Shown here piece by piece: positions 4,427-14,442 of a stretch of 64,000 nt of DNA. Origin of the DNA: Scenedesmus sp. PABB004 (taxonomy: Eukaryota); assembly GCA_014905635.1 (NCBI GenBank), contig CM026547.1, forward strand, positions 1,488,001 through 1,552,000, given 5' to 3'. Made by a program: the position numbers and the translations under genes. The number at the start of each line of letters is the position of its first letter. Within the stretch, counting starts at the first letter, position 1. The notes under the pieces are model-generated. The model did no database searches. It saw only the letters and a program-made list of their open reading frames with translations, and was not told where the DNA came from.

Positions 4427-4638
4427 GCTTGTCCCGGGGCGGCGCGCGGGGTGCCGCCGCGAGCCCCCACTGCGCTGAAACACGCGCGCCGGCGCGCCGC
4501 GGCGGCGCGCCCCGCGCGCCGCTGTACCCTACAGAGCCGCAGCAGCATTCCCCGAACTGAAGATTTTCGGCGGGTGGCGAGGCCAGGGACGCGCGGCGCT
4601 TGCGCACACAGCTGAAAGATTGCTGTCGCAGCGGCGCG

Positions 4639-4643
4639 TGTAA
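4639..4643 (+). terminator. TGTAA green-algal polyadenylation signal
   Basis: TGTAA about 210 nt after the stop codon. The same motif follows other genes at 20206, 43412 and 47661 (+) and 4738-4742 and 14751-14755 (-). Confidence 0.65.
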
Positions 4644-4928
4644 CTGCCTGCTCTCTCCGCCGCCTTGCCGCGCGCGCACGCGGCAAGCACGGCTGCACCC
4701 AAGGCTCGGCAGCTCTGCACGAGGCGGGTCGCGTCAGTTACAGCGTGCGCCAGCCAATCACGGCGCACAGCGTGCGCGTCAGCCAGCTGCGCCGAACTGC
4801 GGCGATTGCTGCTTCGCATGCGCCGCCCTCGCCCAGCCGCCGTTCCTCACCAGCCAGCCTACCTGCCTCCCTGCCTGCCTGCCTGCCTAGCTGCCTCCAC
4901 CCCCCTGGCGTGCCCCCTCCCCCCGCCC

Positions 4929-7043
4929 TCACGCCACCGCTGCCAGCGCCGCCGCCACCGCCGCGACCGCCGCGAGCCGGGCCGCCGCCGACGGCGCGAC
5001 GAGCGCGGTGGCCGCGCTGGCGACCGCGCCGCCGCCCGCGCGCTGGCGCGGCCCGGGCGCCATCGCGCTCGCCGGCACGCCGATCTGCTGCGCCACGTCG
5101 GGCGGCACCAGCACGTGCGCCACCACGTGCACCACGGCCTTGCCGCCGACGAGGTCGGGCGCCAGCACCGCGCTGCCGTCGACGGCGAGGCCCGCCCCCG
5201 GCGCGGCGCGGCCCGACTCCTGCACGACCGCGCCTGGCGGTGGCCAGCTCGGTGGCGCGGGCCTGCGGGCGGCGGCACAGCGCGGGCGCAGCGTCGGCGG
5301 CGAGCGGCGCGGCAGGGCTGGCAGCCGGCCGGCCGGCCGCCCCAAAGCTCGCCCGGCGGGCCGGCCCGCGGCCGCTCCGCTGGCACTCACCCCGGCCCCT
5401 CCTCCACTGTGAGCGCGTTGCCGGCCTGGGTCTTGAGCCCGCCGCCGCCCGCCAGCGCCTCGAGCGACAGCGCCTCCAGCGCCTTGCTGCCCAGCGACAC
5501 CCCGGCGACGAGGTGCCCGCTCACGAGCTGGTCCGCCAGGCTGGCGTTGCCGGCCAGCGCGCGCTGCGCCGACGGTGACAGCGCGCCGAGGAACGCGCGC
5601 ATGGCCTGCGCGGGTGCGGGTGCGGCGGCAGGCGGCGGGCGGGCGCGGCACGGCGCGGCACGGCGCGGCGCGGCGACGGACAACAGGCCGGTCAGCGAGC
5701 AGGCGGCGACGCCCCCCCCCCCCCCCCTCCTGACCTCCTTCAACTCTCCGCCATGGCCGCCGGCCGGCCAGCTCACCTGGTTGCTCGGCGCAAACAGGGT
5801 GAGCTCCGCGGCCGGGTCCTCCAGCACGGGCAGGAGCCCCGCCTGGTCTGCCAGCTGCGCAAACATCTCCAGCTGCTGCGTCGGGTCGCGCAGCACGCTC
5901 AGCGCCGACGCGTAGCGCCCGCCCGGGCCGCCGGCCAGCGCGGCAGCCGCCGCGGCCGCCGCGGCGGCGGCGGGGCCCAGCAGCGCGTCCACGACGTGCC
6001 CCGTCGCGCTGCCGGACTGGAGGTTGGGCTCGACCACCGACAGCACCGCGCCCGTGGGCGAGTGCCGCAGCCGTGCCGTGCCGTCCTCCGGCCGCACGGC
6101 CACGACCTCCAGGGAGCCGCCGTCGGCGGTGCGCAGGCGCTGCCCCGGCTCGAGCCGGTCCAGGCTCAGCGGCGCGCCCGGGACGGTGAGGCCGTTGAGC
6201 TGCGCCGCCAGGGCCGCCGCGGGGACGTCGGCAAACACGCGGCCCGCGGGCGCGTCGCGCAGCGCGGGGAAGGCCGCCTCAAACGCCTGCGAGCGGCGCG
6301 CGCGGCGCCCGGGGTGTGCGGGGGCCGGCGCGCGGCGCTGCGCGCGCCTGCTGCGGCCGTCCCACCGCCCCACCGCCCCGCCGCCTCGCCGCCTCAACCC
6401 TGCACGCACCGCGTCGTCCGGGATGAAGATCGTTCCCTCAAACGAGGGGTCGGACAGCGCGGTGGCGGGCCCCGCCGCCTCGACCGCGTCCATCCACAGC
6501 CCCACCGGCGACGCGGCCTGCGCCAGCGGCACCAGCACGCCAGGCTCGTCTGCGGCGGCGGCGGCGGCGCCGGCGGCGGGTTTCAGGGGGGGGGGTACCT
6601 GCCGCCGCGCGCGGCGGGCGCGGGTGCAGGGGCGGCCGGCGCCCGCGCGGCGCGGGCCGGCCGCGGCCGCACCCGAGTTCGCGGGCGCCTGCGGGTCGAT
6701 GATGCCGGTGGTGGGGTAGGTCGTCACCGGTGGTGGCGGCGGCGCGCGCGGGCCCACGCGCGCCGGCGCCGGGGCCGGCGGCGGCGCGGCCGCGATCGCC
6801 GTCGTGGCCGGCCCCGCGTCGTCCTCTGCCAGCAGGCACGGCGCGCCTGCGGGGGGAACGGGCGGCCGCGTGAGGCGTCCTGTGGGGGCCTCCAGGTGCA
6901 GGGGCCGCGCCGCGGCGCTGCGAGGGCGCCGCGCGGGCGCCGCGCAGCGGCAGCTGCCGGCACTCACCGAGCAGCACCACCACCAGCGTTGTGAGCCGCA
7001 GGCGCGAGGTGCGCCGGGCCGGAAAAAGGCTCCGACGGCTCAT
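4929..7043 (-). CDS. Fasciclin (FAS1)-domain surface protein, two FAS1 domains, multi-exon
   Basis: Hydrophobic N-terminus (RLTTLVVVLLG). FAS1 H1/H2 motifs GTIFIPDDA...GHVVDALL and LTLFAPSNQ...VVHVVAHVLVP; hydrophobic C-terminal tail. Confidence 0.8.
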
Positions 7044-10221: not shown

Positions 10222-10632
10222 GCTGCGGCCGCCGCGCTGCGCCGCCGGGGCCGGCGCGATCGCCAGGCGCGCGGGACGGGCACGCGCCGCGATCGGCCCC
10301 GGCGGGAGGCGCTTTTTTTTTGGAGCGGGAGCGCGGCGGGCGGGTTGCACCCCAAGCAGGCGCGCGGCCCGTCTCCAGCATCCTCACTCCACAGCCGGGC
10401 GCGGCGGTCGCCGAAGCCCCCCCCTGCAGCCGCAGCACCGCGCCGCGCCAGCCCGCGGCCTCTTCGCGCGCGCGTGGCGCCTGGGCCCGCCCTCCACGCA
10501 CCCCAAACGCGCCCGCGCGCGCCCCTGACCACAGCGCGCCGCGCAGCCGCGGGCGCAGCCGCAGCCGCCGCGCGCGCCGCCGCCGCTGCTGCCGGCCGGC
10601 AGCCGGGGGCGCGCCGCGCGCGCCGGGCCGCC

Positions 10633-11398
10633 ATGAGGGGCGCCAAGGTGACCATCAAGTACACGGCCGACGATGCGGCCGCCAGGGTGCGCCGCCGCGC
10701 GCCGCGGGGGCGGCGCAGCCGCCGCAGCCGCCGCGGCGCTGCGCCCGGCGGCCGCCGGCCGCGCGCGAGGCCCCGCCGCCCGCCGCGCCGCCCGGCCGGC
10801 GCAGGAAGCGGAGCTGGAGGACTTTCTGTTTGGCGGCGGCGCCGGCGTGGGCCGGCTGCTCGCCGGCGGCGCCGGCGGCGGCGAGGCGGGCATCGCGGAG
10901 CTCGTGCGCGCGGCCGAGGCGGACGCCGGCGGCGACGACGCGGACGGCGAGCTCTTTTTCGAGGACCGCGGCGGCGACGACGGCGGCGCCGACGGCGCGG
11001 CGGGCCCTGGCCCGGGCAGCGCGCGCCTGCAGCAGCAGGGCGGCAAAGGTGCGCCGCGCGGGGGCGCTCGCGCGGGGGCGTTCGCGCGGGGCCCGGCGCC
11101 GCGGCGAGCGCCTGAGCCGCAATGCCCCCCCCCCCCCCCCGCGCCGCCGCACCTCCCCGCCTCCCCGCCGCCGGCAGGCAAGAAGCGGCGCGCGCCGGCG
11201 TGGGTGGACCCGGCTGACCGCGACGCGCGCGTGGCGGTCGCGGACGCGCCGCGCCTGCGCAAGCTGCGCGCGACCAAGGCGCAGACCGAGCTCTCGGGCG
11301 CAGAGTACGAGGCGGCGCTGCGGCGGCAGCACGCCAAGCTCAACCCGCGCACGGGCTGGGCGGCGGCGGCGAAGCGCGCCCCCGGCGGCGCCGCGCGG

Positions 11399-11429
<31 letters not shown>

Positions 11430-11701
11430 CGCAGGAGCCGGACGAGGAGACCGCGGAGCGCCTGCTCGCGTCGGGCAGCGGGCTGCTGCTGCGCGGCGGC
11501 GGCGGCGGCGCGGCGCGCGGCGGGCTGCTGGCGCCGGGCACGCTCGAGCTGAGCCGCCTGCGCGACGCCAACGGCGCGAGCCCGAGCGACGCGGTGGTGC
11601 AGGCGCTGCAGTTCCACCCCAACGGCCAGCTCATGCTGACGGCGGGCTTTGACAAGCGGCTCAAGATCTTCCAGGTGCGGCGGCGGCGCGTGTGAGTGCG
11701 T

Positions 11702-11732
<31 letters not shown>

Positions 11733-12853
11733 GGGGCGGCCGCGTGCGGCGCGGCTCCAAGCCCTGCGACGCAGCGCGCCGCTCCAAGCCCCCCTCCGGC
11801 CGTCGCCCCACCCCGTGCGCGCGCACGCGCGCCGCCGCCGCGTCCAGGTCGACGGGCTGCGCAACCCGCTGGTGTCGAGCCTCTTCCTCGAAGACTGCCC
11901 CATCCACACCGCCGCGTTTGCGGCCGGCGGCGCGACGGTCGTCGCGGCGGGGCGGCGGCCGTTCTACTACGTCGCCGACCTCCACAGCGGCGCGCTCGAG
12001 CGCGTCGTCGCGCCGCCGAGCCTCTACCACACCGGCGGCGCCAAGGGCGGCGCCAAGGGCGGCGGCGCCAGGGGCGGCGGCGGCGGCGGCATGAAGAGCT
12101 GCGAGTCGTTTGCGGCGAGCCCCGCGCCGGGGCGGCCGCTGCTCGCGTTCCTCGGCGACGGCGGGCACATCGGCCTGGTCAGCCTCGGCTCGCGGGCGCC
12201 CGTGGGCAGCCTGAAGATGAACGGCAGCGCCCGCGCGGCCGCGTTCAGCGCCGACGGCGCCACTCTCGTCACCGCGGGTGCGCGCCGCGCCGCGCCGCGC
12301 CGCGCGCGCGCGCGGGCGGGCGAGCGGGGCGTGGCCGCCGCGCCGCGCGGCGCCACACATGCGTGACAACTTTCAGCGCGGCCTAGCCCCTCCGGCCCCG
12401 CTGTGTTCTCAGCACGCGACAGCGACCCCACGCCTGTTTTGTTGCCCCGCGGCGCCACGCTTCATCGCGCGGCGGGGCTGGTTGAGCAGGCGACAGCCCG
12501 CGCACGCGCCGCGCCCCTCCCTCCCTCGCCCCCGCATCCCTCGCTCCCCTCCCCGCCGCGCGCGCACGCGCGCGCGCCGGCGGCCGCGCTGACCCGCCCC
12601 GCACTGACCCGCCGCGCGCTGACCCGCCCGCCGCCCCGCCGCGCCGCGCCCGCCGCCCCGTCCCAGGCGGCGACGGCGTGCTGTATACGTGGGACATGCG
12701 CAGCCAGCGCTGCCTGCAGCGCCAGCGCGACGAGGGCGCGCTCGACTGCGCGTCGCTCGCGCTCTCAGCCGACGGCTCCTACCTCGCCACCGGCGGCGCG
12801 GCGGGCGTGGTCAGCGTGTACGCGCGCCCCGCGGGCCTGCTCGCGCCGCTCGG

Positions 12854-12884
<31 letters not shown>

Positions 12885-13205
12885 GGCGGCGCGGCGGCGG
12901 GCTTTGGCGCGCCGCCCGCGGCGCCGGCGCCGCTCAAGGCGCTGATGAACTTGACGACCACGGTGGACACGCTGGCGTTCAGCCACGACGGCCAGATGCT
13001 GCTCATGGGCTCGCGGCTGAAGCGCGAGGCGCTGCGCGTGGCGCACCTGCCCAGCCTCACCGTGTTCTCCAACTGGCCGACGACCCGGTCGCCGCTGCAC
13101 TACGTCCACTGCGCCGCGTTCAGCCCGCACGGCGGCTTCCTGGGCGTCGGCAACGCCAAGGGCCGCGCGCTGCTGTACCGGCTGCACCACTACGCCGAGG
13201 CGTGA
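10633..13205 (+). CDS. UTP18: U3 snoRNA-associated protein 18 (WD40), 5 exons
   Basis: PAWVDPAD...RLRKLR...LSGAEYEAALRRQH, FHPNGQLMLTAGFDKRLKIFQVDG, LMNLTTTVDTLAFSHDGQML, VFSNWPT, GNAKGRALLYRLHHY. Confidence 0.92.
12360..12498 (+). ncRNA. Intronic box H/ACA snoRNA (two hairpins); 3' hairpin predicted to guide an 18S rRNA pseudouridine
   Basis: Lower-GC island in the long UTP18 intron. Hairpin 1 (12360-12418) is followed by ACA at 12419; hairpin 2 (12431-12492) is followed by ACA at 12493. Both have internal-loop pockets 14-15 nt upstream of ACA. Pocket 2 is complementary to 18S CUCAACCA-U-A-AACGA. Confidence 0.8.
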
Positions 13206-13478
13206 GCGGCGGGGCGTGAGCGGCGGGGCGTCGGCGCTGAGGCGTGAGCGCCGCGCAGTGCGTGCTGCGCGGTGCAACCGCGCGGTTTTGGACTTGGCCC
13301 CGCGGCTCGCGCCGCTCCGCTGTGGTCCAGCCAGCCAGGACATGCAGCTCCGGTGAGCCCGACAGCCCCGTTGGCCCAAGATCCACATCTGCCGCCGGCA
13401 GCGCGCAGCAGCAGCGCCGCCGCCGCCGCGCCAACGCCTGCCCGCACAGCCGCGCCGGCGAGGGCGCGCCCTTGCACC

Positions 13479-14442
13479 ATGTCGTCAGCGGCGCCCCGCG
13501 CGCTCGCGGCCGGGCAGCAGCGCGGCCGGCTGTCGCTTCCCTCGCCAGCGCCTGTCCCAGCGCGCTGCCTCGCGCGCCCGGGCTGCATTAGACCAGCAGG
13601 TGCGCCGCCGCGCGGGACGCAGGGAGATCTGCAACAGGCGCGCCGCGCCGACCTGCTGCGCCGCGCGTCGCGCCGAGCGCTGCCCGCCGCCGCTGCCGGC
13701 GCGCGTGCTCCGGCAGGTGCGCGCCGGCGGGGACCGGCCGTGGTGTTCGCCGCCAAGCGCGCCGTGGCGGCGGCGCTGGCGCCCGCGGCGGCGGCGCCCG
13801 TGCTGCTGGCGCCGGCGCTCGCGTTCAGTAGCGGCACCTACCTGATGGCCCCAATCTACCTCACGCTCGCCTTCTTCCCCCGCTCCAAGCTGGTGCGTGC
13901 CTCCCACGCCGCAGCCGCTCGCCGCGGCGGCAGTCCTGCCGACCGGGGACGGGCGTGCTGCGGCATCCGCGCGGCCAGGCGCGGCGGCGGCCGCGTGCTG
14001 TGCTGACGCAGGGCCGCCGCCGCGCCCGCCGCGCCTGCGCGCGCAGTCGCAGGCCATCCTGAGCAGCGCGCTGCTGCCGCTGGCCTTTGCGGCGGCGTAC
14101 GCGGTGCTGGCGTGGCAGGCGTGGCAGGGCGGCGACCTGGGCGCGGTGCAGCAGGTCCTCGCCGCGTCGCGGCCCCTGCCCGACGCGGCGAGCCTCGCGG
14201 CGCTGTTCCAGCACAAGACGCTCACCGCGCTCGCGTGGCTGCACCTGCTGCTGCTGGACTTTCTCACCGCGCGGGCGGTGCTCATGGACGGGCTGCGCCA
14301 GCTCGTGCCGACCGCGCACTCGGTGCTGCTCTGCTTCATGGTCGGCCCCCTGGGCCTGCTGAGCCACGTGCTGACGCGCCTCGTCGTGCACCGGCTGCGC
14401 GGCGACAACGCCGCGGTCGCGAGCAGCAGCATGTGGGCGTGA
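13479..14442 (+). CDS. ABA4: ABA4-like (DUF4281) plastid membrane protein, neoxanthin-synthesis family
   Basis: Transit-peptide-like N-terminus; LAWLHLLLLDFLTAR...HSVLLCFMVGPLGLLSH signature; one intron at about 13893-14046. Confidence 0.85.

Follow-up and report, generated by a model that had tools for sequence, protein, structure and literature searches.

A probable box H/ACA snoRNA in an intron of the UTP18 gene of Scenedesmus sp. PABB004, with predicted targets at conserved rRNA pseudouridines

The gene that occupies this part of the 64-kb window (the whole stretch of DNA that was analysed) encodes a homologue of the ribosome-biogenesis protein UTP18. Its last coding exon matches human UTP18 (PDB 7mq8_LS, E 1.1e-37) and yeast Utp18 (PDB 5wlc_LS, E 7e-27), and the protein encoded here, P0001, has 100% identity with an NCBI entry that bears the name Scenedesmus sp. 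PABB004. P0001 splices across the intron that precedes this exon, joining TLVTAG to GDGVLYTWD, and within that intron, on the sense strand of the host gene, lies a short element with the anatomy of a box H/ACA small nucleolar RNA. The first-pass annotation, made from the letters of the window, had placed the element in a UTP18 intron of about 390 nt, and both the identity of the host and the length of the intron are confirmed by the protein matches and the splice junction. It had also described the intron as longer than typical. At 389 nt it is indeed longer than two other introns of the same gene model (~129 and ~170 nt), and as the comparison covers these two, both from one gene, the description is true of a very small sample. 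The features of the locus, with the basis for each in brackets, are as follows.

11845..12277, + strand: UTP18 exon 5' of the host intron (tblastn of P0001)
12278..12666, + strand: UTP18 host intron, GT..AG, phase 1, 389 nt (sequence, ORF frames, annotated protein P0001)
12360..12498, + strand: candidate box H/ACA snoRNA of 139 nt within these limits, with hairpin-hinge-hairpin-tail form (folds, GC)
12360..12365, + strand: hairpin 1 lower stem, 5' strand, 6 bp with 12413-12418 including a terminal U·G (sequence)
12366..12373, + strand: hairpin 1 5' pocket strand ACAACTTT, which pairs through the five bases at its 3' end with AAAGU, just 3' of the predicted 25S target (target search)
12374..12403, + strand: upper part of hairpin 1, a stem of 5 bp and 4 bp parted by a C·C mismatch, with a loop of 10 nt (folds)
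12404..12412, + strand: hairpin 1 3' pocket strand TGTTCTCAG, whose first five bases pair with GAAUG, two of the pairs being G·U (target search)
12413..12418, + strand: hairpin 1 lower stem, 3' strand (fold)
12419..12430, + strand: hinge ACAGCGACCCCA, 12 nt (sequence)
12431..12436, + strand: hairpin 2 lower stem, 5' strand CGCCTG, 6 Watson-Crick bp with 12487-12492 (folds)
12437..12443, + strand: hairpin 2 5' pocket strand TTTTGTT, of which TTGTT pairs with AACGA of 18S rRNA (target search)
12444..12478, + strand: hairpin 2 upper stem and loop, 7 bp plus 4 bp, 11-nt loop (folds)
12479..12486, + strand: hairpin 2 3' pocket strand TGGTTGAG, 8 Watson-Crick bp with CUCAACCA of 18S rRNA (target search)
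12487..12492, + strand: hairpin 2 lower stem, 3' strand CAGGCG (folds)
12493..12495, + strand: ACA box directly after the hairpin 2 lower stem, 14 nt past the top of the 3' pocket strand (sequence)
12667..13205, + strand: last UTP18 coding exon, ending HHYAEA and then a stop (ORF frames, protein matches)

We consider 12360-12498 on the + strand to be a real intron-borne box H/ACA snoRNA, a member of a known RNA class, with a probability of roughly 0.8. Two hairpins with internal loops, each with an ACA 14-15 nt after the start of its 3' pocket, are found where the first-pass annotation had put them, and the pocket TTGTT that it had noted at 12439-12443 is the 3' part of the longer strand TTTTGTT. 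The lower-GC island that it had described is equally clear: the GC content of the element is 69.8%, compared with 92.7% and 88.7% in the intron flanks, 78.6% and 76.4% in the neighbouring exons and 78.7% in the whole window. A low-GC element within a GC-rich intron is what a sequence constrained by rRNA pairing would be expected to look like. The element is present once in the 64-kb window (blastn). An intronic position in a ribosome-biogenesis gene is common for snoRNAs of green algae, to judge from Ostreococcus tauri (PMC7671301), where introns house 72 of 131 snoRNAs and ribosome-biogenesis genes make up 33% of the hosts.

How far does folding alone carry this reading? The minimum free energy (MFE) of the whole element is -65.7 kcal/mol and that of the full H/ACA-type structure -59.6 kcal/mol. 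The hairpin-hinge-hairpin-tail architecture is present in the MFE structure and in the explicit H/ACA-type structure; hairpin 2 is kept in the whole-element MFE, in which the pocket strands of hairpin 1 partly pair with each other. Folded alone, hairpin 1 has the H/ACA-type structure as its MFE, with five of its lower-stem pairs kept. Fold z-scores of -2.37 for the + strand and -3.20 for the - strand are modest and show no preference for the strand of the element, and therefore the case for something more than chance rests on the boxes and the guide-target tests and not on folding energy. On the reverse strand no ACA stands behind either hairpin.

The boxes depart from the family rules in one respect. 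[quoted passage not shown] The hinge ACAGCGACCCCA holds no ANANNA in any register, and the sequence at the H-box position is ACAGCG, in which A1 and A3 are kept and position 6 is G; the suspicion, raised from the hinge reading ACAGCGA, that the H box is non-canonical was well founded. The ACA at 12419-21 directly follows the lower stem of hairpin 1, 15 nt past the start of the 3' pocket strand. The distance from target to box is usually 15-16 nt in eukaryotes and 14-16 nt in archaea (PMC7991803), and the distances here, 15 nt for hairpin 1 and 14 nt for hairpin 2, fall within 14-16 nt, with the exact values depending on how the target position is counted. A guide duplex has at least 8 bp in total and at least 3 bp on each side (PMC7991803), and both hairpins reach this minimum on surrogate plant rRNA, with 8+5 bp for hairpin 2 and 5+5 bp for hairpin 1. 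A hinge that opens with ACA and lacks an ANANNA could also belong to two single-hairpin ACA RNAs of ~65-70 nt each, with the ACA at 12419 as a true box, and the double-hairpin rule does have exceptions, such as the trypanosomes (PMC7991803). We regard such a pair of RNAs as very improbable, because a 12-nt hinge is the usual double-hairpin arrangement, nothing in the analysis points to a processing site in the hinge, and PMC7671301 gives the reported H/ACA snoRNAs of O. tauri both a 5' and a 3' stem.

The two pockets of each hairpin were compared with rRNA by the pairing rule of H/ACA guides, in which the 3' pocket strand pairs with the bases 5' of the target U and the 5' strand with the bases that follow U-N. 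The target rRNA is a surrogate, taken from land-plant contaminant contigs in bacterial and archaeal assemblies and not from the alga itself; the Rfam scan found no rRNA in the 64-kb window. Searching the bacterial and archaeal assemblies with the 18S motif gave 70 contaminant eukaryote contigs, most of them land-plant-like, and the target space marked by Rfam comprised a complete 18S (contig L053, 1217-3024), 5.8S, and the LSU at model positions 1-2249 of 3401. The LSU beyond these positions was checked only in four full-length LSUs of divergent eukaryotes (L169-L171 and L173), which served as extra target space; L161 was left out since it holds a partial LSU only, and L031 showed no LSU in the stretch examined. 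We presume from green-algal rRNA that the 18S segment CUCAACCAUAAACGA and the 25S segment GAAUGUCAAAGU are present in this alga. Arabidopsis numbering was fitted to L053 through the modified positions given by Streit & Schleiff 2021 (Suppl. Tables 2 and 3).

The best site for hairpin 2 is position 1027 of the plant 18S, CUCAACCA-[U]-A-AACGA, which pairs over 8+5 bp with one G·U and scores 12.5, compared with 8.5 for the runner-up in the 18S, 5.8S and LSU (1-2246) of the plant. The conserved 18S segment that the first-pass annotation had named as the target of this hairpin is paired as it proposed. Its further suggestion that the target U corresponds to human Ψ1081 is upheld. Plant 18S 1027 is Arabidopsis U1025, with an offset of +2 across 900-1300 at which 34/34 anchors agree; Arabidopsis U1025 is a pseudouridine mapped by Sun et al. 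2019, its guide is given as 'nd', its human equivalent is U1081, and no yeast equivalent is listed (Streit & Schleiff 2021, Suppl. Table 3); and human 18S Ψ1081, 94% modified, stands in the context CCGACCA-Ψ-AAACGAUGCC in the part of Taoka et al. 2018 (Suppl. Fig. S2) available to us. A target-driven scan of both strands of 577,515 bases, made up of the 64-kb window and 80 algal UTP18 loci, found hairpin 2 to be the sole hairpin able to guide this 18S site. From this complementarity, the predicted target of hairpin 2 is the 18S uridine that corresponds to Arabidopsis Ψ1025 and human Ψ1081. Our literature search did not find a guide for human 18S Ψ1081. The excerpted O. tauri target lists (PMC7671301), at positions U994-U998, contain 25S.U995 and 25S.U996 only and no guide for 18S.U996, the equivalent site; for the neighbouring 18S U971 the same excerpt gives snR31 / SNORA8 / At-snoR5a. 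The guides of human 18S Ψ1081 and Arabidopsis Ψ1025 would act on the same uridine, in the same conserved context, as the target of hairpin 2.

Hairpin 1 had been left without an assignable target and called a possible orphan guide, which it need not be: its best rRNA match is also a known pseudouridine site, in 25S rRNA. This is LSU 2214, GAAUG-[U]-C-AAAGU, which pairs over 5+5 bp with two G·U and scores 9.0, and the equivalent site is also the best for hairpin 1 in 4/4 other LSUs. With an offset of +13, and U2174, U2176, U2181, C2187, A2204 and A2210 as anchors, LSU 2214 is Arabidopsis U2201, a mapped Ψ with snoR99 as its guide and U3694 as its human equivalent (Streit & Schleiff 2021). Human 28S Ψ3694 is 100% modified and has the context CUGAAUG-Ψ-CAAAG in the available part of Taoka et al. 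2018. Both target sites are known pseudouridines in other organisms. The pairing of hairpin 1 makes the 25S uridine that corresponds to Arabidopsis Ψ2201 and human Ψ3694 its probable target. The duplex is weak, both G·U pairs adjoining the target. A looser scan for guides of the 25S site returned hairpin 1 and about five unrelated places in the 577 kb. Two of these places were inspected and rejected, one at L072:2998, which has no second hairpin, and one in L089, which is TG/CA low-complexity sequence.

The weight of these matches was gauged by shuffling the pockets with their composition kept, against a plant target space of 877 U with 66 listed Ψ. In the plant space, shuffles scored at least as high as hairpin 2 in 27/2000 cases and as hairpin 1 in 204/2000; with one extra LSU added to the plant space the counts were 23/1000 and 238/1000, respectively. 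The top site was a listed Ψ for 200/2000 shuffles of hairpin 2 and 93/2000 of hairpin 1, and an equal or better score coincided with a listed Ψ in 1/2000 and 16/2000. Since the first-pass annotation picked the 18S target post hoc, the statistic for hairpin 2 calls for a multiple-testing discount, and even with this discount the guide prediction for hairpin 2 is well supported. That for hairpin 1 is supported mainly by an independent best match that also falls on a conserved Ψ.

The difference between the hairpins raises a narrower question, whether hairpin 2 might be the sole guide of a real snoRNA, with hairpin 1 serving RNP assembly or stability, or acting on another target, perhaps an snRNA, an rRNA site peculiar to the lineage, or a position in the 3' third of the LSU of this alga. 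We consider this less likely than not. The shortness of the hairpin 1 duplex with its two G·U pairs next to the target, the ease with which shuffles match its score, the handful of unrelated places that a loose scan also yields, and the existence of another guide for the 25S site in Arabidopsis, snoR99, would all suit a hairpin without a 25S role. They have to be weighed against a top site that belongs to the listed Ψ and is shared by Arabidopsis and human, the rarity of shuffles that combine such a score with a listed site, and a duplex that does reach the published minimum, 8 bp in total and 3 bp per side. A guide function for both hairpins remains the reading we prefer.

Could the whole element be a chance structure, two GC-rich hairpins followed by ACA that give no stable RNA and have no guide function? 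Such hairpins are not rare in this window. A hairpin-plus-ACA descriptor fires on 18/676 ACA triplets, 12 on the + strand and 6 on the - strand, and two more of those that pass lie inside or adjoin the same intron. Hairpin 1 escapes the strict descriptor owing to the C·C mismatch that interrupts its upper stem. Modest z-scores that are alike on both strands and an H box that is not canonical also suit a chance origin, as do the lack of an Rfam match and the absence of the element from the single orthologous intron compared, both described below. However, the top target is a listed Ψ in only 1/18 of the descriptor-passing hairpins, namely hairpin 2, and in 0/17 of the others, whose pockets are GC-rich, whereas the element is a sharp low-GC island; the best rRNA match of both pockets is a mapped Ψ site conserved in human; and the joint shuffle counts for score and listed site are small for hairpin 2 and low for hairpin 1. 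A chance structure is therefore quite improbable in our judgement. Against the snoRNA reading stand the missing Rfam match, the ACAGCG H box, the pairing of the hairpin 1 pockets in the whole-element MFE, a z-score no better on the + strand, the unrelated orthologous intron, the surrogate nature of the rRNA, the failure of the descriptor to detect hairpin 1 and the weak hairpin 1 duplex.

The Rfam check that the first-pass annotation had recommended was run and gave 0 matches across the whole window at the gathering score, and again 0 when 12200-12700 was scanned with E up to 10, so that every curated snoRNA family is unmatched. For comparison of the intron across algae, a metagenome scan with the UTP18 alignment gave 80 loci, and 16 of these were examined by tblastn. 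In eight of these (L141-L146, L149 and L150) the UTP18 reading is interrupted at the same residue and in the same phase; they belong to a distant metagenomic alga, with 73% identity in the best segment, and their orthologous intron has no similarity to the element. In the remaining 8/16 the UTP18 reading is uninterrupted and there is no intron at that place. The closer relative Scenedesmus sp. NREL 46B-D3 (P0002) entered the comparison as protein only. Bacterial and archaeal genome contigs gave 8 weak WD40 matches, none of them useful, a search of 88 loci with the motif GGTTGAG plus box gave no orthologue, and an exact 22-mer of hairpin 2 had 0 matches in the genome contigs. The literature search found no paper that combines Scenedesmus, snoRNA and pseudouridylation.

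If the element is a snoRNA, its biogenesis and action could follow the usual course for intronic H/ACA RNAs. It would be transcribed within the UTP18 pre-mRNA of Scenedesmus sp. PABB004, and after splicing and debranching the intron would be trimmed by exonucleases down to the snoRNA, which would be protected by Cbf5/dyskerin, Nop10, Nhp2 and Gar1. The opened internal loop of each hairpin would then pair with rRNA on both sides of a uridine, with this uridine and the nucleotide 3' of it left unpaired at 14-16 nt from the box, and Cbf5 would isomerise the uridine to pseudouridine. We infer that the RNA accumulates, binds these proteins and directs modification in this alga.

Among known systems, the candidate is most like the H/ACA snoRNAs of green algae and plants (Ot-HAsno of O. 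tauri, snoR of Arabidopsis). It shares with them two pocketed hairpins and a 3' ACA, an intronic position in a ribosome-biogenesis host, bipartite rRNA complementarity round an unpaired U-N, and a box 14-15 nt past the top of the pocket; unlike them, it has ACAGCG at the H-box position and no Rfam match. Arabidopsis snoR99, which is listed for 25S U2201 and 18S U803, would have the same 25S uridine as predicted for hairpin 1. The partner hairpin here is predicted to target the U1025 equivalent, that of snoR99 targets U803, and no homology to snoR99 emerged from the Rfam scan.

With this candidate, a non-model green alga gains a snoRNA gene that had not been annotated. Rfam covariance-model scans miss genes of this kind, which in a genome of 80% GC are picked up by a low-GC island taken together with a guide-target test. 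The element is also put forward as a candidate guide of a conserved 18S Ψ to which no guide is assigned in Arabidopsis, and its pocket sequences are a possible query for the missing plant guide of 18S Ψ1025. The general understanding of H/ACA guides is unchanged by it, and in that sense the finding is an ordinary one. The deviant H box poses a small, testable question on how strict the box is in Chlorophyceae: with an ACA-type ACAGCG at the H-box place, the element may act as a relaxed-H-box snoRNA or as a tandem of single hairpins. We know of no report of relaxed-H-box or tandem single-hairpin ACA guides in green algae. That the locus represents a relaxed-H-box double hairpin or tandem single-hairpin guides, and at the same time the first green-lineage guide for 18S Ψ1025/Ψ1081, is unlikely.

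Two minor observations concern the UTP18 loci themselves. The intron of the eight interrupted metagenome loci described above carries a block of its own, predicted to form a long hairpin without an ACA; compensatory changes are found in 0/46 of its predicted pairs, and the block is conserved among three sequence variants. Oligo-dT biofilm metatranscriptome contigs (word share 0.10) compared with 10400-13600 of the window gave mostly low-complexity partial matches, and the single exact piece among them, of 205 bases, corresponds to 12964-13168 in the last exon of UTP18.

Three sequence variants of the UTP18 gene of a metagenomic green alga (L143, L141 and L150) carry an intron at the same position and in the same phase as the UTP18 host intron of Scenedesmus sp. 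PABB004, and comparison of the three reveals one block that has been kept while the remainder of the intron has diverged:

L143, 4975-5100: conserved intron block
L141, 1390-1520: conserved intron block
L150, 175-300: conserved intron block

The block is predicted to form a long hairpin, GGCATGTC...GACGTGCC, with neither an ACA nor clear C/D boxes, and none of its 46 predicted pairs shows a compensatory change among the three variants. Read by eye, the exon-intron boundary in these loci is ...ACCTCAG followed by GCGCGCGTCGG, and the intron apparently begins with GC rather than GT (L143:4888, L141:1298 and L150:76). On this reading of the boundary it would therefore appear to be a GC-AG intron.

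Towards its 3' end, the host intron itself contains three copies of CTGACCCGCC with a period of 15 nt (window 12589-12628), located 39-78 nt upstream of the acceptor:

12589-98 (+): first copy of CTGACCCGCC
12604-13 (+): second copy
12619-28 (+): third copy

The motif CTGAC is similar to the branch-point consensus, and the copies may therefore be redundant branch sites, or may be merely a GC-rich tandem repeat. Inspection of frame translations also revealed a (GT)n microsatellite in the upstream UTP18 intron (window 11690-11720), where the GC profile dips to 0.67.

The public gene model of the UTP18 homologue (P0001) is 807 amino acids long, compared with approximately 600 in relatives. The proteins of the relatives stop at ...HHYAEA, whereas the model runs on beyond this point (window 13203-14439), joining two extra exons that resemble a hydrophobic protein:

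13824-13892: extra exon joined in the P0001 model
14047-14439: extra exon joined in the P0001 model

A stop codon lies in the window frame immediately after ...HHYAEA, the open reading frame ending at 13205. The public model is probably a fused gene model.

The rRNA searches also encountered plant- or alga-type 18S rDNA on 70 contigs filed as bacterial or archaeal assemblies (L001-L070), and eukaryote LSU rDNA on at least 16 further contigs so filed (L159-L174); these contigs are contaminants within public genome records. One of them, the eukaryote contig L170, is filed under a Chloroflexota MAG and possesses a group I intron inside its LSU rRNA gene (4559-4974; Rfam RF00028, 95.8 bits).
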